Positions 4,732-56,174 of a DNA stretch of 64,000 bases are shown here, in pieces. Within the stretch, counting starts at the first letter, position 1; every line of letters starts with the position of its first letter. The stretch is from NCBI GenBank assembly GCA_043804755.1, contig JAZDIT010000044.1:24-64023 (forward strand), read 5' to 3'. A program made the position numbers and the translations under genes. The stretch comes from Patescibacteria group bacterium. GTDB taxonomy: Bacteria > Patescibacteriota > Minisyncoccia > Minisyncoccales > JAQTPW01. The notes beneath the pieces are model-generated. The model ran no database searches and was not told where the DNA came from. It worked only from the letters and a program-made list of their open reading frames with translations.

Positions 4732-4755
4732 CCCGCCGCAAGGCGGGTTTTGGTT
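4732..4755 (+). terminator. Rho-independent terminator-like hairpin after rpsJ (CCCGCCGCAAGGCGGG + TTTTGGTTT)
   Basis: GC stem with GCAA loop followed by a T-run, 8 nt after the rpsJ stop. Confidence 0.55.
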
Positions 4756-4845
4756 TATACTTGAAATAAAATCGCATTCAGGATTTCTTTGATATTGGTT
4801 GACGGATATAGATTTATATTTTATCGTTTAAGAAAGGAGGGACGT

Positions 4846-4875: not shown

Positions 4876-5024
4876 GGCTGCCCAAAACCGCAAGACTATC
4901 CAGGTATGTAATTTCTGATTGGCAACTAGTCTTGTCGCCGGTATTCAGCAGCCTAACCCAATATGCCCGTTTATCTGTCTGTTGAAACATACCAACAGCT
5001 CTAAACGGGTCCTTTTTATTTTTT

Positions 5025-5048
5025 CCGCCGAAAGGCGGGTTTTGGTTT
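5025..5048 (+). terminator. Second copy of the terminator-like hairpin (CCGCCGAAAGGCGGG + TTTTGGTTTATA)
   Basis: Near-identical 30-nt direct repeat of the 4732-4760 element. Confidence 0.45.
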
Positions 5049-5114
5049 ATAGCTTAAATTTACCCGACAGGATTAAGATGGGTTTTCTAAATATTCTTGA
5101 ACTGGGGAAAACTG

Positions 5115-5143
5115 TTGACATTATGTTTGGCTTAATATATACT
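5115..5143 (+). promoter_or_regulatory. Candidate sigma70 promoter for rplC and downstream genes (TTGACA-17-TATACT)
   Basis: Consensus -35 hexamer, 17-nt spacer, 5/6 match at -10; about 115 nt upstream of rplC. Confidence 0.45.
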
Positions 5144-5217
5144 TTCTTTATGAGTATACTATCTACATCCTTCGTCTGTTGACGAAAGATTAGAACAAGT
5201 ACTAACCGTTTTAATTC

Positions 5218-7704: not shown

Positions 7705-8043
7705 ATGTCTAGATCACTTAAAAAAGGTCCCTTTGTCGATCAAAGACTTCTGGAAAAAATTCAGAAGCTGAAACCGGATTCAAAGGATATCATAAAAACC
7801 TGGAAAAGAGCCTGTTCCATTACGCCGGAAATGGTTGGTTTTACTTTCGGAGTGCATAACGGAAAGGATTTCATAACCGTAAAAGTGAATGAAGATATGG
7901 TAGGCCACAAACTGGGCGAGTTTTCCCCGACGACTAAATTTTCAAGACATGGAGGAAGAATGCAAAGGGAATTGGAATCCAAAGTGGTTGAAAAAGAGGC
8001 CGTAAAGGTTGAAGAAGTAAAGAAAGAACCTAAAGCAAAATAA
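7705..8043 (+). CDS. rpsS: 30S ribosomal protein S19 (C-terminal Lys/Glu-rich extension)
   Basis: S19 core ([11 protein letters not shown]...HNGK...). Confidence 0.92.
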
Positions 8044-8095
8044 GAACCTGCGCAAGCGTAGAACCTTGATTCTTCGCTCCGCTCAGAAAAAAATT
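8041..8095 (+). repeat. Intercistronic palindromic repeat unit (variant), rpsS-rplV junction
   Basis: TAAGAACCTGCGCAAGCGTAGAACCTTGATTCTTCGCTCCGCTCAGAAAAAAATT-ATG; member of the family seen at six loci. Confidence 0.8.
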
Positions 8096-8620
8096 ATGAT
8101 TGCCACCGCAAAGCTTAAATATTTAAGGATAGCTCCCAGAAAAGTCAGGCTCGTAGCGGATTTGATAAGAGGAAAAAGAACTGATAGGGCTCAGGCCGTT
8201 TTGAGCTTTGCGAACAAAAAATCGGCACTAATTATCCTTAAACTTTTAAAACAGGCGATAGCCAACGCAAAAAACAATTTGCATCTGGACGAGTCAAATT
8301 TATACATATCGAAAATAACAGTTGACGGAGGACCTATGCTGAAAAGATTCCGGCCGCGAGCCAGAGGGTCAGCTTATGAAATTCAGAAAAAAACTTCGCA
8401 TATCCTGATCGTCCTCGATGAAATTGAAAAAAGAGGGAAAAAAGAAAAAATCGTCAGAGAACCTGTAAAGGCGGAAGAAGAAGTGGCCGCTGAAAAACCG
8501 CAGGAAAAATCCGGTGAGGAAGTGACGGCGAAAAAATCGAAAATGAAAGTGGAAAAAGAAATCGCAAGGCCGAGAACAGGAAAGGGAACCACTAAAATTT
8601 TCAGAAGGAAATCTTTTTAG
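8096..8620 (+). CDS. rplV: 50S ribosomal protein L22 (C-terminal Lys/Glu-rich extension)
   Basis: Start moved to the ATG at 8096 (MIATAKLKYLRIAPRKVRLVADLIRG); the track's TTG start at 8066 lies inside the repeat. Confidence 0.9.
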   Translation: MIATAKLKYLRIAPRKVRLVADLIRGKRTDRAQAVLSFANKKSALIILKLLKQAIANAKNNLHLDESNLYISKITVDGGPMLKRFRPRARGSAYEIQKKTSHILIVLDEIEKRGKKEKIVREPVKAEEEVAAEKPQEKSGEEVTAKKSKMKVEKEIARPRTGKGTTKIFRRKSF

Positions 8621-9298: not shown

Positions 9299-9703
9299 AT
9301 GTTGCAACCAAAAAGAGTAAAACATAGAAAATGGAAAAAAGGAGTATCAATCGGTATTGAAACGCGGGGGACGACTTTGGTTTTCGGAACGTACGGATTG
9401 AAAAGCATGGGTTCATCTTTTATTACGGCAAGGCAATTGGAAGCAGCAAGACGCACCATTTTGAGATATTTGAAAAAGGGCGGAAAATTTTGGATAAGAA
9501 TTTTTCCCGATAATCCGGTTACAAGCAAAGGATCGGAAGTTCCGATGGGAGGCGGGAAAGGAATGGTTGACCATTACGCGGCCCACGTGAATCCTGGAAG
9601 AATAATTTTCGAACTGGAAGGGTTGAAGGAGGAGGTTGCCAAAGTGGCTTTGGGCATGGCTGCCGATAAATTGTCGGTAAAAACAAAATTTGTTAAAAGA
9701 TAA
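9299..9703 (+). CDS. rplP: 50S ribosomal protein L16
   Basis: L16 family (MLQPKRVKHRK...). Confidence 0.93.
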   Translation: MLQPKRVKHRKWKKGVSIGIETRGTTLVFGTYGLKSMGSSFITARQLEAARRTILRYLKKGGKFWIRIFPDNPVTSKGSEVPMGGGKGMVDHYAAHVNPGRIIFELEGLKEEVAKVALGMAADKLSVKTKFVKR

Positions 9704-9745
9704 GAATCTTACCTTCGGTAAGAGTCTTGATTCCATAAATTTCAC
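9701..9745 (+). repeat. Degenerate intercistronic repeat unit, rplP-rpmC junction
   Basis: TAAGAATCTTACCTTCGGTAAGAGTCTTGATTCC...; UUCG-loop hairpin flanked by AGAAYCTT direct repeats. Confidence 0.6.
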
Positions 9746-9771
9746 TACGTTCAATTTATGAAAATAAAAAA

Positions 9772-9960
9772 ATGAAAATCAGCGAATTACGTCAAAAATC
9801 AAAAGATGAATTGAAAAAAATTTCTGATGATAGCCGGGAGAAATTGAGGCAGTTGAGATTTGATTTAGCCTCAGGCAAAGTGAAGAATGTACGCGAGATA
9901 CGTCAGATAAAAAAAGACATCGCGAGAATAATGACATTATTTAAACAAAATCTTAAATAA
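9772..9960 (+). CDS. rpmC: 50S ribosomal protein L29
   Basis: L29 family, 62 aa, operon position. Confidence 0.88.
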   Translation: MKISELRQKSKDELKKISDDSREKLRQLRFDLASGKVKNVREIRQIKKDIARIMTLFKQNLK

Positions 9961-10296: not shown

Positions 10297-10668
10297 ATGA
10301 TACAACTGAGAACAAGATTAAAAGTCGCCGATAATACGGGAGCGAAAATCCTGCAGTGTTTTCATATTTTAGGAGGAAGCAAAAGGAAATGGGGCCAACT
10401 GGGCGACATGATAGTCGGCGTCGTAAAAGAAGCGGAGCCCAGGAGATTGGTAAAAAAACATGAGGTAATCAGGGCGGTTATCATAAGGCAAAAGAAATTA
10501 TACAAGAGACGGGACGGTTCATATATCCGTTTTGACGACAATGCCTGTGTCATTTTGGAAGGAAAAACCAAGGAACCGAAAGGGGGACGAATTTTAGGTC
10601 CCGTTGCAAAGGAAGTGAAAGAAAAGGGATTTGACAATGTTGCGGCTTTGGCCGAAGAGTTAATATAA
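10297..10668 (+). CDS. rplN: 50S ribosomal protein L14
   Basis: MIQLRTRLKVADNTGAK... L14. Confidence 0.95.
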   Translation: MIQLRTRLKVADNTGAKILQCFHILGGSKRKWGQLGDMIVGVVKEAEPRRLVKKHEVIRAVIIRQKKLYKRRDGSYIRFDDNACVILEGKTKEPKGGRILGPVAKEVKEKGFDNVAALAEELI

Positions 10669-10776
10669 GAACCTTCGCAAAGCGAAGAACCTTGGATGTC
10701 TGCGGCAAATAAGAACCTTGCCTTCGGCAAGAACCTTGTCTTTTCACTGCGGCTCAGAAATAAAATATTCAAAATT
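10666..10776 (+). repeat. Two tandem intercistronic repeat units, rplN-rplX junction
   Basis: TAAGAACCTTCGCAAAGCGAAGAACCTTGG... then TAAGAACCTTGCCTTCGGCAAGAACCTTGTC...GGCTCAGAAATAAAAT. Confidence 0.85.
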
Positions 10777-11082
10777 ATGAAATTGAAAAAAGGAGATACA
10801 GTTTTAATAATTTCGGGAAAATACCGTGGTAAAAAGGGAAAAGTTTTGGTTTCTTTTCCTGAAGCGGAAAAGGTTTTGGTTGAAGGGATTAATATAAGGA
10901 AAAAGCACCAGAAGGCAAAAAAAGAGGGACAAAAGGGTCAGATAATAGAGATGCCTGCTCCCATTTCGGTTTCGAATGCGATGCTGGTTTGTCCCAAATG
11001 CGGCCAGGCCACGAGAATTGGTTCAAAATTAGTTGAAAAAAAGAGATACAGGAGCTGCAAGAAATGCGGCCAAGAAATATAA
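10777..11082 (+). CDS. rplX: 50S ribosomal protein L24 with a C-terminal Cys4 zinc ribbon
   Basis: Start moved to the ATG at 10777 (MKLKKGDTVLIISGKYRGKKGKV); C-terminus CPKCGQ...CKKCGQ; the track's N-terminal extension is a translated repeat. Confidence 0.9.
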   Translation: MKLKKGDTVLIISGKYRGKKGKVLVSFPEAEKVLVEGINIRKKHQKAKKEGQKGQIIEMPAPISVSNAMLVCPKCGQATRIGSKLVEKKRYRSCKKCGQEI

Positions 11083-11134
11083 GAACCTTGCCTACGGCAA
11101 GAACCTTGTTTCTTCGCTGAGGCTCAGAAATAAA
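11080..11134 (+). repeat. Intercistronic repeat unit, rplX-rplE junction
   Basis: TAAGAACCTTGCCTACGGCAAGAACCTTGTTTCTTCGCTGAGGCTCAGAAATAAA-ATG. Confidence 0.85.
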
Positions 11135-11689
11135 ATGACATATTTGCAAGAAAAATATAAAAAAGAAGTTATTCCTGCAATGAAGGAAAAATTCGGATTC
11201 AAAAGTCCGATGGCGGTTCCCAGAATTGAAAAAATAGTCGTGAATACCGGTTTCGGAAGGGGAGTTGCCGGAAAGTCTTCTGAAGATCAAAAGAAAATAC
11301 AAAAGGGTATTTCGGACGATTTGGATTTGATTTGTGGCCAAAAGTCAATTTTAAAACCGGCCAAAAAATCCATAGCTAGTTTTAAAATTAGAGAAGATAT
11401 GCCCATAGGAGCCGCAGTTACCTTAAGGAGGAAAAAAATGTATGATTTTCTTGAAAGGCTAATTCAAATAACATTGCCGAGAATGCGCGACTTTCGGGGA
11501 GTGGATTCAAAGGCGGTTGATAAAAGAGGAAATTTGACTTTGGGGATAAAAGAACATATTGTTTTTCCGGAAGTATCACCCGAAAGAGCAAAAAACATCT
11601 TTGGATTGGAGATTACCATCGTTATGAATGCGAGAAACAAGGAAGAGGGCGTACAATTATTAAAATTAATGGGTTTTCCTTTAAAGTAA
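11135..11689 (+). CDS. rplE: 50S ribosomal protein L5
   Basis: Start moved to the ATG at 11135 (MTYLQEKYKKEVIPAM...); L5 family. Confidence 0.92.
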   Translation: MTYLQEKYKKEVIPAMKEKFGFKSPMAVPRIEKIVVNTGFGRGVAGKSSEDQKKIQKGISDDLDLICGQKSILKPAKKSIASFKIREDMPIGAAVTLRRKKMYDFLERLIQITLPRMRDFRGVDSKAVDKRGNLTLGIKEHIVFPEVSPERAKNIFGLEITIVMNARNKEEGVQLLKLMGFPLK

Positions 11690-25650: not shown

Positions 25651-26280
25651 ATGGAAGATCCAAAATGTAAAATTTGCAGAAGATTAGGAACCAAAGTCTT
25701 TTTGAAAGGAGACCGCTGTTATTCTGCGAAATGCGCTTTCTTAAGAAGACCATATCCGCCAGGTCCGAAACACAAAAGAAGGACACGCCAGCTTTCCGAA
25801 TACGGAAAAGAATTAGCCGAAAAGCAAAAATTAAAAAATTGGTATAATTTGAATGAGGGGCAGTTCAGAAATTACGTTAAAAAGGTTCTTTCCAAGCGAG
25901 GAAAAGTGGAGAATGCGGCCGAGGAACTTATCGTCAATCTGGAGAATCGTTTTGACAACGTGGTTTTTCGGCTGGGGTTCGCTCCTTCAAGGCCTCAGGC
26001 TCAGCAGATAGTTTCTCACGGTCTTTTGTCCGTTAACGGAAAAACTATAGATACTCCGTCTCACAAAATGAAAATCGGAGACGTCATAAGCCCTCGTCCT
26101 CAGAAAATTAAAAAAATTATTTTCCAAAATCTTAAAAATATTATTAAAAATTATAAAACTCCGAAATGGCTGCAGCTTGATGCCGAAAAATTGGAAGGGA
26201 AGGTAATCGGAAAGCCGACCATTGGAGAAGCGGCGCCGCCAGCGGAGGTTTCAGTTATTTTCGAATTTTATTCTCGATAA
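25651..26280 (+). CDS. rpsD: 30S ribosomal protein S4 (zinc-ribbon N-terminus)
   Basis: CKICRRLG...CYSAKC Cys4; S4 domain. Confidence 0.92.
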   Translation: MEDPKCKICRRLGTKVFLKGDRCYSAKCAFLRRPYPPGPKHKRRTRQLSEYGKELAEKQKLKNWYNLNEGQFRNYVKKVLSKRGKVENAAEELIVNLENRFDNVVFRLGFAPSRPQAQQIVSHGLLSVNGKTIDTPSHKMKIGDVISPRPQKIKKIIFQNLKNIIKNYKTPKWLQLDAEKLEGKVIGKPTIGEAAPPAEVSVIFEFYSR

Positions 26281-27089: not shown

Positions 27090-27417
27090 AAAATTAAGCC
27101 TGAAAACCGATCAGAGAAAAGCGCTTTTGAGATCGGTGGCAGAATCTCTTTTCTTAAAAGAAAAGATAAAAACTACTGAAGCCAAAGCCAAGGAGGTTGC
27201 CGGTTTGGTGGAAAAAATGATAACGAAAGCCAAAAAAGGCGACATGGCGGCAGTGCGAAGTCTATCGAGATTTTTTTCGGATAGAATAGTGAAAAAGCTG
27301 ATAAAAGAAATCGCACCGAGATATGTGGCCAGAATGGGAGGCTATACCAGAATAATCAAACTTGGACCGAGGAAAAACGATGCCTCAAAAATGGCGATAG
27401 TGGAATTAGTTAAATAA
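27067..27417 (+). CDS. rplQ: 50S ribosomal protein L17
   Basis: L17 family. Confidence 0.9.
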   Translation: MRKRKKGRKLSLKTDQRKALLRSVAESLFLKEKIKTTEAKAKEVAGLVEKMITKAKKGDMAAVRSLSRFFSDRIVKKLIKEIAPRYVARMGGYTRIIKLGPRKNDASKMAIVELVK

Positions 27418-27555
27418 GAACCTTCGCTTCGCGAAGAACCTTGATTCTTCAGAAATAAGAACCTTCGCTTCGCGAAGAACCTCGATTCTTCGGAAATAAG
27501 AGCATTCGCTTCGCAAAGAACCTTGATTCTTCGCAAGCTCAAAAATGAAAATAAA
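27415..27555 (+). repeat. Tandem array of three intercistronic palindromic repeat units (41-nt period), rplQ-rplM junction
   Basis: TAAGAACCTTCGCTTCGCGAAGAACCTTGATTCTTCAGAAA, then a near-identical second unit, then a third unit extended to GCTCAAAAATGAAAATAAA-ATG. Confidence 0.9.
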
Positions 27556-27903
27556 ATGGAGCGCAAAACTTATACAATAGACGCAACAAACAGAGTATTG
27601 GGAAGATTGGCGGTGCAGATAGCAAATTTATTGAGGGGGAAAAGGAAAACGGATTACGTTCCTTATAAAGATATGGGAGATTTCGTCGTGGTGAAGAATA
27701 TCAAAAGCATCATGGTGACCGGGAAAAAAACCGATCAAAAAAAGTACTACAGCCATTCCGAGTATTTGGGAGGCCTCAAGGAAATATCCTATAAAAAACT
27801 TTTCGAAAAAAATCCGGCGGAAGTCCTGAAAAGAGCCGTTTTCGGGATGCTGCCCATAAATAAGCTCAGAAACGAGCAAATTAAAAGATTGATAATAGAG
27901 TAA
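27556..27903 (+). CDS. rplM: 50S ribosomal protein L13
   Basis: Start moved to the ATG at 27556 (MERKTYTIDATNRVLGRLAVQIANLLRGK). Confidence 0.92.
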   Translation: MERKTYTIDATNRVLGRLAVQIANLLRGKRKTDYVPYKDMGDFVVVKNIKSIMVTGKKTDQKKYYSHSEYLGGLKEISYKKLFEKNPAEVLKRAVFGMLPINKLRNEQIKRLIIE

Positions 27904-30581: not shown

Positions 30582-30610
30582 TTGACAAAACTGTGATAAT
30601 TAGGTAGAAT
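30582..30610 (+). promoter_or_regulatory. Consensus-like sigma70 promoter TTGACA-17-TAGAAT for the GC-rich island genes
   Basis: 6/6 at -35, 17-nt spacer, 5/6 at -10; GGAGG ribosome-binding site 5 nt before the ATG at 30656. Confidence 0.55.
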
Positions 30611-30655
30611 ATTCCATAGTGGAAACAGCACCTGAACAACTGAAACGGAGGCGAA

Positions 30656-37795: not shown

Positions 37796-38837
37796 AATTT
37801 GGAAAATATTTTCGGAAGACATCGCAATTGATTTGGGAACGGCAAATTCCGAGGTTTATGTAAGGGGGCGGGGAATAATCATCCAGGAACCGAGCGTCGT
37901 TGCCATCAACCAAAAAACCGGGCAGATTCTTGCAATAGGCGAGGAGGCGAAAAAAATGGTTGGCAGAACGCCGGCTCATATCGTGGCTACAAGACCTCTG
38001 AGATCGGGCGTGATTTCCGATTTTGAAGTGACCGAGCAGATGCTCAGATATTTTATTGAAAAAGCCCAACGGAAAAAATTCGCTTTGTCGGCCAGGCCAA
38101 GAGTTATAATAGGTATTCCTTCCGGGGTGACGGAGGTGGAGAAAAAAGCCGTGATAGATGCCGCAAAATCGGCCGGAGCGAGGGAAGTTTTTTTGATTGA
38201 AGAACCAATGGCTGCTGCGATAGGCGCACGGCTTCCGGTACAGGAAGCGGGCGGGAATTTCATAGTCGATATCGGCGGAGGAACCGCGGAAATCGCAATA
38301 ATCTCCCTTGGCGGAATAGTTTTATCCAAAAGTTTGAGGATAGCGGGCGACAAACTGAATGAAGACATAATCCAGTTTGCTCAGGAAGAATATAAGCTCC
38401 TTATCGGGGAAAGAACCGCCGAAGCGATTAAAATCGGAATAGGATCGGCTTATCCGCTGAAGGAAAAAAGGGAGCTTCCCATGCGCGGAAGGAACTTGGT
38501 AACGGGCCTTCCTGAAGAAATACTCGTTTCGGATGAAGATATAAGGAGAGCCATGGAAAAATCCGTAAAGAGAATTGTCACTGAAATCAAAACCGCAGTG
38601 GAAGAGAGTCCGCCGGAATTGCTGGCTGACATCATGGCGTCGGGAATTTATTTTTCGGGCGGGGGATCTTTGTTGCGCGGATTGGATATTCTTGTGGCTA
38701 AAGAAACGAAAATTCCCACGCGCCTTATTGAAGACCCGATGACTGCGGTTGTGAGGGGAGCGGGAATGGTTCTGGAAAATCTTGATGAACTCGAAGACGT
38801 GCTCGTGGAAACTGCGGAACTCGAACCGCCAAAATAA
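37785..38837 (+). CDS. mreB: Rod shape-determining protein MreB (paralog 2)
   Basis: AIDLGTANSEVYV...; full MreB fold. Confidence 0.9.
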   Translation: MLDKIWKIFSEDIAIDLGTANSEVYVRGRGIIIQEPSVVAINQKTGQILAIGEEAKKMVGRTPAHIVATRPLRSGVISDFEVTEQMLRYFIEKAQRKKFALSARPRVIIGIPSGVTEVEKKAVIDAAKSAGAREVFLIEEPMAAAIGARLPVQEAGGNFIVDIGGGTAEIAIISLGGIVLSKSLRIAGDKLNEDIIQFAQEEYKLLIGERTAEAIKIGIGSAYPLKEKRELPMRGRNLVTGLPEEILVSDEDIRRAMEKSVKRIVTEIKTAVEESPPELLADIMASGIYFSGGGSLLRGLDILVAKETKIPTRLIEDPMTAVVRGAGMVLENLDELEDVLVETAELEPPK

Positions 38838-38890
38838 GAACCTTCGCTTCGCGAAGAACCTTGATTCCTCGCTAACGCTCAGAAATAACG
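38835..38890 (+). repeat. Intercistronic repeat unit, mreB-gatC junction
   Basis: TAAGAACCTTCGCTTCGCGAAGAACCTTGATTCCTCGCTAACGCTCAGAAATAACG-ATG. Confidence 0.85.
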
Positions 38891-39175
38891 ATGTTATCTA
38901 AAGAAGAAGTACAACATATCGCAAAACTTGCGAGATTAGGCATTACTTCCGAAGAAGAAGGAGAATTTGCGAAAGATCTTTCTTCGATTTTGGATTACAT
39001 TGAAAAACTTAAAAAAGTAGACGTTTCGAATATCCCGCCTGCCAGCCATGCCGTTTTGGTTGAGAATATGATGAGAGAAGATTCGGAGGGGGAAAAATCC
39101 GACGGCCAAAAACTATTGGGTTTGTCTCCGGAAACGAAAGACGGATTTTTAAAAGTAAAATCGATTTTCAAATGA
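38891..39175 (+). CDS. gatC: Glu/Asp-tRNA amidotransferase subunit C
   Basis: GatC family, 94 aa. Confidence 0.88.
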
Positions 39176-53254: not shown

Positions 53255-54703
53255 ATGCCTTATAAACCAACAATCGGGCTGGAAATTCACATAGAGCTGA
53301 ATACCAAAACGAAGATGTTCTGCGGTTCTTTGAACAACCCGGAAGAAAGACGTCCCAACGTCAATGTTTGCCCCGTCTGTATGGGCCATCCGGGAACTTT
53401 GCCCGTCATAAACGAAGAAGCGGTCAAAAAGACAATCAAAACTGGCCTTGCTCTAAACTGCCAAATTCCCGAATATTCCAAGTTTGACAGGAAAAATTAT
53501 TTTTATCCCGACCTGCCGAAGGGCTATCAGATTTCACAGTACGATATGCCTCTTTGCAAGGAAGGATATCTGGAAATTACCGGAAGAAAAATCAGAATAA
53601 CGCGCGTTCATCTGGAAGAAGATACCGGAAGGTTGATACATCCCGAGGGAGCCGGTTATTCCCTGGTTGATTTTAACAGGGCAGGAATTCCGTTGATGGA
53701 ACTTGTAACCGAGCCGGATATCGGTTCTGGCCAGGAAGCCAAAGATTTCGCCGAAGAACTACATCGAATTTTACATTACCTTGAAGTTTCCGATGCTGAT
53801 ATGGAAAAAGGCGAAATGCGAGTAGAAGTAAACATTTCTCTTTCAAAAAATGAGAAACTGGGGACAAAAGTTGAAATCAAAAACTTGAATTCATTCCGTT
53901 CAGTTGAGAGGGGAATTGATTTTGAAACCAAAAGGCAAGCCGAATTGCTAGAGAAGGGAGAAAAAATCATTCAGGAAACCCGGGGTTGGGATGACGTAAA
54001 GGGAATCACTTACAGCCAGCGGGAAAAAGAAGAAGCCCACGATTACAGATATTTTCCCGAACCGGATCTCCCTCCGCTTCATTTTGTTCCAGAATACATT
54101 ACAAAAATACGTGCCGAAGTTTCGGAATTGCCTCAGCAAAAACGGGCAAGATTCAAAAGGGAATTTGAATTGGATGAGAAAACGATTGAAATTTTTGTCC
54201 AAAATAAACACCTTGGAGAGTATTTCGAAAAAGTCATCAGTGAGTTTGGACCCAACCTCTCGCACGAGAAAATTATGGATCTCATAAAGCTTGCGTCAAA
54301 TTACCTGATTTCCGACCTGCTCGGATTGCTGAAAGGAGAGCCAATATCCGGGAATTTCCCGATAACTCCTGAAAACTTCGCACAGTTTATAGGTCTTATT
54401 TGCGATGAAAAAATATCCAGTAAACTGGCAAAGCAAATCTTGCCTGAAATGTTTACAACAGGTGCCGATCCCAACCATATTATAGAAGAAAAAGGGTTGG
54501 AACAGATAACCGATAAATTGGAGATTGAAAACATAATAAGAGAGATAATCGCAAAAAATCCCAAAGTTGTTGAGGACTACAAAAGAGGAAAAGAAAACTC
54601 TGTGCAGTTTCTTATAGGTCAGATAATGGCCCAAACGAATGGTAAAGCCAATCCCCAAATAGCCAGGGGAACATTGCTGGAAGAATTGACAAAACTGAAA
54701 TAA
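53255..54703 (+). CDS. gatB: Glu/Asp-tRNA amidotransferase subunit B
   Basis: GatB family; start moved to the ATG at 53255 (MPYKPTIGLEIH). Confidence 0.92.
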   Translation: MPYKPTIGLEIHIELNTKTKMFCGSLNNPEERRPNVNVCPVCMGHPGTLPVINEEAVKKTIKTGLALNCQIPEYSKFDRKNYFYPDLPKGYQISQYDMPLCKEGYLEITGRKIRITRVHLEEDTGRLIHPEGAGYSLVDFNRAGIPLMELVTEPDIGSGQEAKDFAEELHRILHYLEVSDADMEKGEMRVEVNISLSKNEKLGTKVEIKNLNSFRSVERGIDFETKRQAELLEKGEKIIQETRGWDDVKGITYSQREKEEAHDYRYFPEPDLPPLHFVPEYITKIRAEVSELPQQKRARFKREFELDEKTIEIFVQNKHLGEYFEKVISEFGPNLSHEKIMDLIKLASNYLISDLLGLLKGEPISGNFPITPENFAQFIGLICDEKISSKLAKQILPEMFTTGADPNHIIEEKGLEQITDKLEIENIIREIIAKNPKVVEDYKRGKENSVQFLIGQIMAQTNGKANPQIARGTLLEELTKLK

Positions 54704-54714
54704 TCTCGTATAAT
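54686..54714 (+). promoter_or_regulatory. Perfect consensus sigma70 promoter TTGACA-17-TATAAT upstream of mraZ
   Basis: 6/6 and 6/6 hexamers with a 17-nt spacer; AAGGAGG ribosome-binding site and ATG follow at 54738-54755. Confidence 0.65.
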
Positions 54715-54752
54715 ATTAAACTATAACGTTCATTCATAAGGAGGCGGGGAAA

Positions 54753-55184
54753 ATGGTTACGAGAGGATTTTTCGGCTCGCATTTGTGTCGTCTCGCTGGA
54801 AACAGATTGCCGCTTCCGAGTAAATATCGTTCAGCATTCGGAGGGAAAGCGTTTATCGGGTTGAGCCCTGATAAATGTTTGGTTCTGTTTCCTGACTTTC
54901 CCGGAAAATTTCCGGGGACGATTACAGTGCAGGAAATTTCTGTGTGTAGCGGCAGTTTGATTACTCTGTCAAGGATCACAACTGCCAAAGAGGTGGTAGT
55001 TGCAGGTTGCGGGGATTATCTTGAGATCTGGGACAGTTTTAAAAGGTGGGAAAAAGAAAAAAAGAAAGCACAGAGGTTTTTGTTTAAATTGTTGAAGACA
55101 AAGGAGGATAGCGCATGGATGTTATTCTTGAGGAACTTCGCAAGAAATTTCCTCCGTTTAATAGCAATTGGTCTGGGGAAATAA
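54753..55184 (+). CDS. mraZ: Transcriptional regulator MraZ
   Basis: Two MraZ-type repeats (GNRLPLPSKYR...CLVLFP and ...DYLEIWDSFKRW). Confidence 0.7.
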   Translation: MVTRGFFGSHLCRLAGNRLPLPSKYRSAFGGKAFIGLSPDKCLVLFPDFPGKFPGTITVQEISVCSGSLITLSRITTAKEVVVAGCGDYLEIWDSFKRWEKEKKKAQRFLFKLLKTKEDSAWMLFLRNFARNFLRLIAIGLGK

Positions 55185-55242
55185 AAAGGCGATGGCGGGA
55201 GTCGCGTAAACTTCTGAATTCTCGCCTTCGGGCAAGCAAAAA

Positions 55243-55270
55243 GCGCGGATAGTCGATGACTGTCCGCGCT
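55243..55270. terminator. Bidirectional terminator between mraZ and convergent miaA (GCGCGGATAGTC-GAT-GACTGTCCGCGC)
   Basis: 12-bp stem with one mismatch; T-run on the minus side. Confidence 0.7.
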
Positions 55271-55271
55271 A

Positions 55272-56174
55272 TTAATTTAGAAAAGGCTTAATCAGTTTCT
55301 CTGTTTCTATGTAGTTTTTTATCCAGTGTATGCGTTTGTCTCTTTTGAACCATGTCATCTGGCGTTTTGAGAAATGTCTAATTTTCTTTTGAAGGAGTTC
55401 AACCATTTCCTTATAACTTATTTTTTTCTGCAGATATAGGGCGATATATCGGTATTCCAAGCCAAATTCTTCCAATCTTTTCCAGGAAATTCCCGATTTG
55501 CGGAGTTTTTTTATTTCCGAAACCATTCCCGACTTCAATCTTCTTAGAAGGCGTTTGCGGATTAATTTTTTAAGTTCATCAGGTTCTTTTTTAACGCCAA
55601 TCAATAAAACGGGATAGGGGAGCGGTTTTCCTTTTAAAACAGGTATAGGTTTTTTAGTTTTTCTGACTATTTCAATCGCCCTTATCAGTCTTCGTGGATT
55701 ATTTTTATCAATGTTTCTTGCCCTTTTTGGGTCTAGTTCTTTCAAAATATCGTAAAGTTCTTTTACCGATTTTTTTTCAAGTTTTTTTCTTAGTTCCCAG
55801 TCAGGAATAACTTCAGGAATTATCGTTCCGTCTATCAGCGACTGTATATAGAATCCGGTTCCGCCGCAGATAATCGGAATTTTTTTCTTGGTGAAAATTT
55901 TATTCAGAGCTTTTTCCGCCAATTCCCTGTATTCCGTAACGGTGAATCTTTTTTTGGGACTGGAAACATCCAAAAGATAATGGGGAATATTCCGCATTTC
56001 TTTTTTAGTCACCTTGCCAGTCCCGATATCCATTCCTCTGTAAACCTGTCTGGAATCGGCCGAAATCACTTCTCCATCGAATTTTTTCGCAAGTTTTACG
56101 GCTAGGTCGGATTTGCCCGAAGCAGTGGGGCCCAAAACAACAATTATTTTTCTATTTATTTTTGGTTTTTTCAT
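55272..56174 (-). CDS. miaA: tRNA dimethylallyltransferase
   Basis: GPTASGKS P-loop; MiaA family. Confidence 0.9.
   Translation of the reverse strand: MKKPKINRKIIVVLGPTASGKSDLAVKLAKKFDGEVISADSRQVYRGMDIGTGKVTKKEMRNIPHYLLDVSSPKKRFTVTEYRELAEKALNKIFTKKKIPIICGGTGFYIQSLIDGTIIPEVIPDWELRKKLEKKSVKELYDILKELDPKRARNIDKNNPRRLIRAIEIVRKTKKPIPVLKGKPLPYPVLLIGVKKEPDELKKLIRKRLLRRLKSGMVSEIKKLRKSGISWKRLEEFGLEYRYIALYLQKKISYKEMVELLQKKIRHFSKRQMTWFKRDKRIHWIKNYIETEKLIKPFLN

Follow-up and report, generated by a model that had tools for sequence, protein, structure and literature searches.

The stretch of 64 kb analysed here (contig JAZDIT010000044.1, assembly GCA_043804755.1; hereafter the window) originates from a Patescibacteria group bacterium, a member of the candidate phyla radiation (CPR), and harbors six co-directional gene junctions that are filled by nine units of one short repeat family (Table 1), the subject of this study. 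The junctions are S19/L22, L16/L29, L14/L24, L24/L5, L17/L13, and MreB/GatC. All nine units are located on the + strand, and each array begins on the TAA stop codon of the upstream gene. Pfam confirmed the identities of the genes flanking all six junctions and showed the upstream proteins to be full length; the first TAA of the element is therefore a genuine stop codon. At each site, TAAGAACCTT is followed by a hairpin with a 6-bp stem and a 3-nt loop, then by AAGAACCTTG, and then by a second part with the end ...GCTCAGAAATAA. De novo repeat finding grouped the units as family D1, which exceeds every other direct-repeat family in the window in size and has nine copies, at 8037, 9698, 10663, 10707, 11077, 27412, 27453, 27494, and 38832. 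The motif AAGAACCTTG (at most one mismatch) occurs 18 times in the window versus 6.5 expected occurrences, a number reached in none of 100 shuffles.

Table 1. Repeat units of the window (positions refer to the 64-kb stretch) and unrelated palindromic repeats at ribosomal-protein junctions of other CPR lineages
Feature	Coordinates	Strand	Location	Score	Description
Unit 1	8041..8091	+	S19/L22; starts on rpsS TAA	40.7 bits, E 2e-9	hairpin 1 with 1-nt deletion (CUGCG-CAAG-CGUAG); final TAA decayed to AAA; rplV ATG at 8096
Unit 2	9701..9758	+	L16/L29	33.5 bits	diverged copy; GAATCTT / GAGTCTT, stem ACC/GGT, long AT-rich second hairpin; gap runs to rpmC ATG at 9772
Unit 3a	10666..10709	+	L14/L24; first of tandem pair, on rplN TAA	28.4 bits	hairpin 1 is CGC-AAA-GCG; second half degenerate
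Unit 3b	10710..10763	+	L14/L24; second tandem unit	52.5 bits, E 1e-12	full length, TAA end; AT-rich spacer 10764-10776 precedes rplX ATG at 10777
Unit 4	11080..11133	+	L24/L5	59.4 bits, E 1e-14	best copy; begins on the rplX stop (TAA, 11080); hairpin 1 at 11087-11101, hairpin 2 at 11108-11131; layout TAA-(element)-TAA-A-ATG; rplE ATG at 11135
Unit 5a	27415..27455	+	L17/L13; first of three, on rplQ TAA	49.4 bits	41 nt; second hairpin short
Unit 5b	27456..27496	+	L17/L13; second of three	30.5 bits	41 nt; 95% identity to unit 5a
Unit 5c	27497..27548	+	L17/L13; third of three	13.6 bits (weak on its own)	decayed long-type unit, 88% to unit 5a; GAGCATT, terminal TGA; rplM ATG at 27556
Unit 6	38835..38888	+	MreB/GatC; starts on mreB TAA	53.7 bits, E 5e-13	layout TAA-(element)-TAA-CG-ATG; gatC ATG at 38891
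Unrelated palindromes	L125:7520-7630, L127, L139/L145, L140, L148, L122:10307-10426, L120:10307-10406		other CPR lineages; L139/L145 in the L14/L24 and L24/L5 gaps

A covariance model made from 12 foreign copies, with the window sequence excluded and run with filters off, recognized precisely these nine units, all on the + strand (E 1e-14 to 0.08), and its next match was noise. The same search detected no intragenic copy within the 64 kb, and no other intergenic gap of the window contains a copy. Two junctions carry head-to-tail tandem arrays, with two units at L14/L24 and three at L17/L13. The second hairpin is shortened or degenerate in the units starting at 27415 and 27456 (41 nt each) and at 10666 (44 nt). 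The first 33 nt of unit 6 are identical to those of unit 5a, which lies 11 kb away; this identity reflects recent spread within the genome and counts in favor of a mobile element. A preliminary description of this DNA had claimed that one and the same repeat fills the six junctions, and site-by-site reading, de novo repeat finding, and the foreign-copy model agree with this. Its statement that the element always runs from stop to start is correct for the stop, as every array begins there, but not every array reaches the start codon, since 13 nt of AT-rich spacer follow the element at L14/L24. The L16/L29 gap, described as 9701-9745, actually extends to 9771 and holds a degenerate copy.

The element shows a well-defined architecture, with (T)AAGAACCTT as its 5' end and (A/T)TAA as its 3' end. 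Hairpin 1 begins 7 nt from the 5' end and consists of a 6-bp stem and a 3-nt loop, with the outer three pairs formed by the flanking direct repeats AAGAACCTT. Hairpin 2 follows after a G and finishes 2 nt from the 3' end; it comprises an AU-rich stem of 5 bp, then a conserved UC/UC internal loop, a GC stem of 2-3 bp, and finally a UUY loop, and is present in a shorter form in some copies. It does not resemble hairpin 1. The consensus reads T-AAGAACCTT-GCCTTCGGC-AAGAACCTT-G-WTTYY-TCGCTTYGCTC-RRAAT-AA. In an alignment of 57 copies, which was fitted to the covariance model and is hence somewhat favorable to the hairpins, 94% of the cells are paired and 11 of the 13 pairs show double changes, the short GC stem of hairpin 2 among the covarying parts (GC to AU); none of 500 shuffles matches the observed values, and slid controls pair at 39-50%. 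The reality of both hairpins is strongly supported, and the covariation of stem positions, which the preliminary description had put forward for checking, was found. Terminal inverted repeats are absent: judged by eye on the consensus, three of eight positions agree between TAAGAACC at the 5' end and TTATTTCG, the 3' end in reverse complement. That the stems differ between copies and nevertheless stay paired had been taken as a sign of selection on RNA structure. The observation holds, but a DNA element requiring its hairpins to move would give the same covariation, and paired stems are thus no proof of selection at the RNA level.

A structural switch had also been proposed, in which hairpin 1 pairs its 3' arm (GCGAAGAA) either with its 5' arm or with the downstream UUCUUCGC. 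If riboswitch-like, such a switch would gate translation of the next gene. Minimum free energy folds (RNAfold) of units 4 and 1 indeed use the alternative helix, and in copies of the CGC/GCG type it comprises a perfect 8 bp. It is perfect in no other type, a correction to the preliminary description. Across the 57 copies, its pairing does not exceed that of the shuffled control (75.4% versus 75.9%, a level reached by 443 of 500 shuffles), nor do its double-change cells (2 versus 2.3 expected) or its covariation score (0.066 versus 0.069). Changes in the inner stem of hairpin 1 are not followed by the partner UCGC, and neither a conserved core resembling a ligand pocket nor an Rfam match is present. 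The complementarity is explained by two conserved sequences rather than by a maintained structure, and a switch is very improbable.

Within the family, conservation is highest in the pair of AAGAACCTT 9-mers. Exact AAGAACCTT is found in the window only in the elements, the exception being a reverse-strand match to the 10-nt pattern with one mismatch at 25881. Two direct repeats positioned 18 bp apart might represent a duplex site for a host protein of the nucleoid, replication, or uptake-signal type, and both the conservation and the near-confinement of the 9-mer to the elements would suit such a site. On the other hand, the 9-mer is not spread over coding DNA in the manner of uptake signals, pairing persists among the variable bases that separate the repeats, for which a duplex site would have no need, and most related genomes lack copies. 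This DNA-level explanation is less likely than mobility, and hardly credible by itself. Rfam, applied to the whole window at gathering thresholds, returned three tRNAs only, and at E up to 10 the region 10600-11200 gave only noise. The elements contained no promoter-like sites; hairpin 1 together with TTCTTAT was flagged as terminator-like on the antisense strand, with a poor T tract. Mimicry of 16S rRNA was considered as well, as AAGAACCTT corresponds to a universal 16S segment contained in primer 968F; only the 9-mer is shared, and since it has the same sense as the 16S segment, pairing between the two is impossible. The resemblance was dropped as a probable coincidence.

The element is not confined to the genome under study. 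When one genome per species was scanned with AAGAACCTT-N9-AAGAACCTT, 118 loci emerged, about 40 of them true copies. The covariance model separates the two groups, with true copies scoring 45-80 bits and loci that merely carry the search pattern at most 30 bits. Copies are found in metagenome-assembled genomes labelled Nealsonbacteria, Parcubacteria, Paceibacteria, Minisyncoccales, Wildermuthbacteria, Shapirobacteria, and Saccharibacteria, and a homologue search added a Gribaldobacteria record; the relatives of the window's L24 are of the Nealsonbacteria and Paceibacteria types. Among viral contigs, the core pattern was detected at three loci, all of them unrelated tandem repeats or chance matches. 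A full-text literature search produced no description of the element, the motif matches being 16S primer sequences. At L107:5433-5579 and L003:6069-6106, copies (including a triple tandem) adjoin tRNA-like sequence recognized by eye; the element is thus not restricted to junctions of protein genes. A peptide search with the frame-2 translation (KNLAFGKNL...), a query too short to be informative, matched only five short open reading frames (ORFs) of 45-88 aa without a Pfam domain (P0241-P0245) and missed the known phosphomannomutase insert. The five are likely to be spurious genes called where arrays of the element occur.

Comparison of the flanks of 47 copies delimits the element and its target. 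The 5' flank reads A-A-W-A before an invariant TAAG (A at position -1 in 40 of the 47), and the 3' end reads R-A-A-W-T-A-A, followed by variable sequence. This alignment assigns the G of TAAG to the element and identifies as its target an (A)ATAA-like sequence resembling the element's own 3' end; most copies show TAA at both ends. Head-to-tail tandems sharing T/TAA occur in the window and in the loci L107, L060, and L096, an arrangement that follows from the likeness of the target to the 3' end. Of the explanations offered in the preliminary description, a miniature mobile element comes closest to this evidence, with the correction that (A)ATAA is targeted and not the stop-start junction. The arrays abut stop codons throughout the window, but in other genomes copies are also located within genes and in ordinary intergenic sequence.

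Copies inside genes were identified in other CPR genomes by a reading-frame check, which revealed ten cases of long ORFs crossing the element in frame. These copies have lengths of 45, 48, 51, or 54 nt and are read in two sense and two antisense frames; the sense frame beginning with TAA, which is the frame found at stop codons, never occurs within a gene. As ORF-based context tables are noisy due to spurious antisense ORFs, only hosts confirmed by Pfam or alignment were kept, namely L18, phosphomannomutase, TatD (two genomes, same site), PGK, a class I aminoacyl-tRNA synthetase, RecR, a Mur ligase, and a glycosyltransferase. The copies in the aminoacyl-tRNA synthetase, RecR, and the glycosyltransferase are antisense. 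For seven of the eight scanned inserts, a Pfam domain runs across the insertion and is longer by the amount expected (PGM_PMM_IV, for instance, extends over 86 residues versus 65 profile positions), and the insert in the glycosyltransferase lies between two Pfam domains. Both TatD copies (L038:2396-2446 and L001:7485-7529) are located at the same codon position (after ...FDFKK/...FDYEK), one with a long and one with a short second hairpin; the shared site is either an old insertion that was retained or a hot spot that was hit twice. Two element-bearing genes contain further GC-rich, in-frame hairpin inserts. One lies directly after the element in TatD (L038:2447-2546). The other, at about codons 148-182 of the phosphomannomutase gene in L086 (reverse strand), is missing from the homolog P0122 and contains, in reverse, GCC-TCGCTTCGCTC-GGC, the loop motif of hairpin 2 on a different stem.

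The phosphomannomutases P0121 and P0122 provide an exact pair of a filled and an empty site. The two proteins are 86% identical over aligned columns, and P0122 lacks exactly 16 aa (48 nt). Its empty site reads AAAAAC-AATAAG-GTTTCT, whereas P0121 carries 48 extra bases with AATAAG at either side; the DNA flanks align closely, and the covariance model detects no element in the P0122 locus. The site and its flanks fit either a target duplication of 3-6 bp or insertion 3' of a fixed short sequence. The 6-nt AATAAG repeat overlaps the ends of the element, as would be expected if no dedicated transposase were involved and copies spread by microhomology-templated insertion or by gene conversion from one AT-rich AATAA site to another, with slippage generating the tandems. 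The near-identity of units 5a and 5b could likewise stem from slippage, and neither a weak tblastn test on genome fragments nor Pfam scans of the window proteins disclosed a transposase. Against such spread, dozens of unrelated sites and genomes show the same precise boundaries, compensatory change maintains the hairpins, and the presence in distant CPR lineages is hard to obtain without specific machinery. Transposase-free spread is accordingly judged less likely than enzyme-driven mobility, and a rather poor candidate overall.

The patchy presence of the element is evident from the orthologous junctions of related genomes. Among 85 related S10/spc operon loci (666 kb), recovered through L24 alone and searched with the covariance model, there were only two weak, diverged matches, both in L120 and at other junctions. 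In L206 (73% L24 identity), AT-rich spacers of 10-32 nt occupy all four ribosomal junctions, and the stop codons are found at the codon positions of the window; L123 shows a 1-nt spacer and an overlap at L14/L24 and L24/L5. For the two closest relatives (79% and 78% L24 identity), gene coordinates alone give an L14/L24 gap of 103 nt and no L24/L5 gap. Since the element is absent from the junctions of relatives and the stops of L206 lie at the same codons, the window insertions are lineage-specific and began exactly at the ancestral stop codon. In other CPR lineages, unrelated palindromic repeats of 80-126 nt fill these ribosomal-protein junctions, with one family per lineage (types CGCTGAT...ATCAGCG and ACGAAATACGAAA...TTTCGTATTTCGT). 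Colonization of ribosomal junctions by small palindromes seems to be general in the CPR.

These comparisons bear directly on the idea that the units are cis-acting RNA elements of polycistronic mRNAs, i.e. intercistronic processing or stability signals or termination-reinitiation spacers, selected from the start or after co-option. Hairpin 1 would then shield the upstream cistron at its 3' end, and hairpin 2 would give shape to the region where the downstream one starts. Much of the window suits this idea: all nine units lie in sense orientation within operons, on stops and ending 1-13 nt before starts, both hairpins covary, and five of the six sites belong to highly expressed ribosomal-protein operons. 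The conservation of the core across CPR classes points in the same direction, and the other hairpin repeats at these junctions could mean that structured spacers are favored generally. However, the orthologous junctions lack the element, with spacers of 1-32 nt in close relatives, where a conserved cis-regulatory RNA would be found at the same junction and in sense orientation only. Elsewhere, copies are located in frame in coding sequence, three of the host genes carry them antisense, and an exact 48-nt presence/absence difference lies within a gene; Rfam holds no matching family. An RNA role as the primary explanation is contradicted by the non-conservation at junctions, the intragenic copies, and the filled/empty pair, and the processing or translational-coupling signal offered in the preliminary description is not supported, as the junctions of relatives are compact or contain unrelated palindromes and copies occur in both orientations relative to genes. 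Altogether, the cis-RNA explanation is unlikely. A co-opted RNA role of the window copies, which place structure after the stop and again 2-8 nt before the start, is possible, and the data are explained without it.

The element is an insertion with precise ends and a sequence-specific, AT-rich target, and its hairpins are kept by compensatory change. The nine units are probably copies of a non-autonomous insertion element of about 48 nt that has spread across the CPR, i.e. selfish DNA rather than an operon signal. It is supposed that insertion takes place at AT-rich (A)ATAA sites and leaves TAA or more at both ends. In the window, copies would have landed on, or directly after, the TAA stops of six compact junctions. 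An insert on a stop codon would spare the upstream protein, as it starts with or regenerates TAA, and the old spacer would remain in front of the ATG. At two junctions, further copies may have been stacked head to tail because the 3' end of the element recreates the TAA target. The stop-to-start appearance would thus result from TAA targeting, ancestral stop-start spacers of 1-30 nt, and purifying selection, the latter retaining only insertions that do no damage to genes, whether on stop codons, within spacers, or as in-frame additions to tolerant protein loops. Other insertions would presumably be lethal in a gene-dense genome and hence not be seen. Any effect on the operon mRNA, e.g. through extra structure near start codons, would be incidental or the outcome of later co-option.

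Several points weigh against a selfish mobile element. The exact filled/empty pair is a single one, intragenic and from another genome, and for none of the window junctions is there an empty site from a very close relative. A 27-nt core that is near-identical across phylum-level lineages is unusual for selfish DNA and could indicate a conserved host factor or function. No transposase was encountered in about 1.6 Mb of genome fragments by tblastn with approximate IS200 TnpA and Escherichia coli RAYT queries, a weak test. The scanned window proteins comprise housekeeping proteins only; ten further proteins examined by Pfam gave nine housekeeping families and one without a match. Hairpins 1 and 2 differ, whereas the ends of IS608-type elements carry similar hairpins. 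Lastly, five of the six window sites lie in ribosomal-protein operons, and all copies are oriented along transcription, which a co-opted RNA role would predict as well.

How the element moves can be approached through its architecture. Mobilization as single-stranded hairpin DNA by a trans-acting enzyme, by analogy with the IS200/IS605 and REP/RAYT systems, is put forward tentatively, on account of the missing inverted ends, the hairpin near each end, the target that resembles the 3' end, the direct stacking, and the occurrence on one strand only. The + strand that carries the nine units has a positive GC skew, and the flanking genes are all on the + strand, too, which makes replication and transcription biases inseparable. 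If the region left of ~55 kb is replicated from left to right, the + strand would be the lagging-strand template. The sign of the GC skew and the gene orientation (from + to -) switch near 55-56 kb, at the peak of the cumulative skew. The interval at ~55200-55270, between the genes at 54753-55184 (+) and 55272-56174 (-), may thus mark a replication terminus or no more than the meeting point of convergent genes.

If copies of a mobile element indeed occupy these sites, selfish DNA persists in very small and gene-dense CPR genomes, which are usually called streamlined. A very small insertion element common to distant CPR classes would be located on the stop codons of ribosomal operons and in loops of essential enzymes, and would represent a second, independent case of the in-frame insertion behavior known from Rickettsia palindromic elements. 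It would explain odd extensions and inserts in CPR protein alignments as well as long "intergenic" gaps in compact operons, and the stop-to-start pattern would be accounted for without a new translational or processing signal. For annotation, short ORFs called across tandem arrays should be regarded as likely spurious. The combined sequence and structure model can be used to look for the mobilizing enzyme. In its most far-reaching form, the proposal is that of a phylum-wide, previously undescribed TAA-targeting mobile element without inverted ends, moved by conserved machinery acting on single-stranded hairpins, which adds peptides of 15-18 residues to essential proteins (including L18) and structured spacers to ribosomal-protein operons, some of them perhaps co-opted as RNA; this composite picture is offered as a possibility that is clearly more doubtful than mobility as such.

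A few further features of the window were observed apart from the repeat family. L24, encoded at 10777-11082 between two element-filled junctions, has a zinc-ribbon-like C-terminal CxxC...CxxC tail (CPKCGQ...CKKCGQ), and its 101-aa form is common to CPR relatives. Between rpsJ and rplC, a terminator-like hairpin with a T tract followed by TTTATA...TTGAAAT/TTAAAT is duplicated 292 nt apart (4733-4767 and 5025-5059). The duplicates surround a small extra ORF (4919-5182), and relatives carry a small unannotated or antitoxin-like ORF elsewhere in the operon. Near-identical sequences resembling strong promoters (TTGACAAAACTG...TAGAAT / TATAAT) lie at 30582-30613 and 54686-54717, upstream of unrelated genes.

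Among known systems, Rickettsia palindromic elements (RPEs) are closest in behavior. RPEs are short palindromic repeats, dispersed in a reduced genome, that are found in frame in unrelated housekeeping genes, where they add a peptide and leave the ORF undestroyed, and also between genes (PMC10969869). The element described here is likewise a dispersed short palindromic repeat that lies in frame in unrelated genes while the ORF stays open, and it is intergenic elsewhere; its nine units in 64 kb with two hairpins each, its in-frame inserts, and its presence/absence differences (P0121 versus P0122; the empty junctions of L206) all correspond to this class. In contrast to RPEs, which measure ~100-150 bp (two to three times as much) and are restricted to Rickettsia, it comprises 45-54 nt and occurs across the CPR. 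Moreover, each RPE family has one preferred coding frame and a conserved peptide, whereas translation crosses the present element in three frames and in either orientation; it also shows a clear TAA-type target and captures stop codons. The resemblance, drawn from descriptions, is one of functional class and not of shared ancestry; membership by descent is not claimed.

In architecture, the element is reminiscent of repetitive extragenic palindromic (REP) elements, which are hairpin repeats of 20-40 nt without terminal inverted repeats, often located just after stop codons in operons and associated with RAYT, a Y1 HUH transposase. REPs are extragenic by definition, possess a GTAG-type 5' motif, and typically form inverted doublets. 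Hairpins without terminal inverted repeats, the position after stops in operons, a conserved motif 5' of the stem, and compensatory stem changes are shared with REP/REPIN sequences. The present element differs in being intragenic as well, in its 5' motif AAGAACCTT, and in forming head-to-tail direct repeats in place of inverted doublets. A weak test by tblastn with an approximate query detected no RAYT gene in the 64-kb window and 8-20-kb pieces of other genomes. Palindrome-associated transposable elements (PATEs) derived from IS200/IS605 also lack terminal inverted repeats, carry a hairpin near each end, and insert beside a short specific sequence. The element agrees with them in these hairpins, in the missing inverted repeats, and in a flank resembling its own 3' end; insertion of the PATE type beside a 3'-end-like sequence would explain both the head-to-tail stacking and the apparent duplication. 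Its hairpins are unlike each other, whereas IS608-type left and right hairpins are alike, and with 48 nt it is much shorter than described PATEs. For TnpA, an approximate tblastn query on ~1.6 Mb (again a weak test) gave no gene.

Mycobacterial interspersed repetitive units (MIRUs), the subject of Supply et al. in 1997, are reportedly direct tandem repeats of 40-100 bp in intercistronic operon gaps, with ends overlapping the flanking stop and start codons. They are not hairpin elements, hold small ORFs thought to couple translation, and are limited to mycobacteria; they are not known to occur as lone in-frame insertions within housekeeping genes. The likeness is that of the intercistronic tandem habit only. 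Transposable elements of the miniature inverted-repeat type (MITEs) such as Correia, Chunjie, and ERIC are, like the present element, small and non-autonomous, with an AT-rich target and a flanking direct repeat, which in the present case may equally be target sequence next to the element's own 3' end; some MITEs are co-transcribed and can form in-frame fusions. Published examples measure ~190-235 bp, and Chunjie sits within operons without breaking them (PMC10969869). The defining feature of MITEs is a set of terminal inverted repeats that match a parent insertion sequence, whereas this element is shorter, has no known parent, and, as it lacks inverted ends, is not a strict MITE. With its RPE-like behavior, its REP- and IS200/IS605-like architecture, and its distance from MITEs, the element is therefore best placed, by analogy, among the small palindromic non-autonomous insertion elements, in which it is unusual in its size, its capture of TAA stop codons, and its phylum-wide spread.

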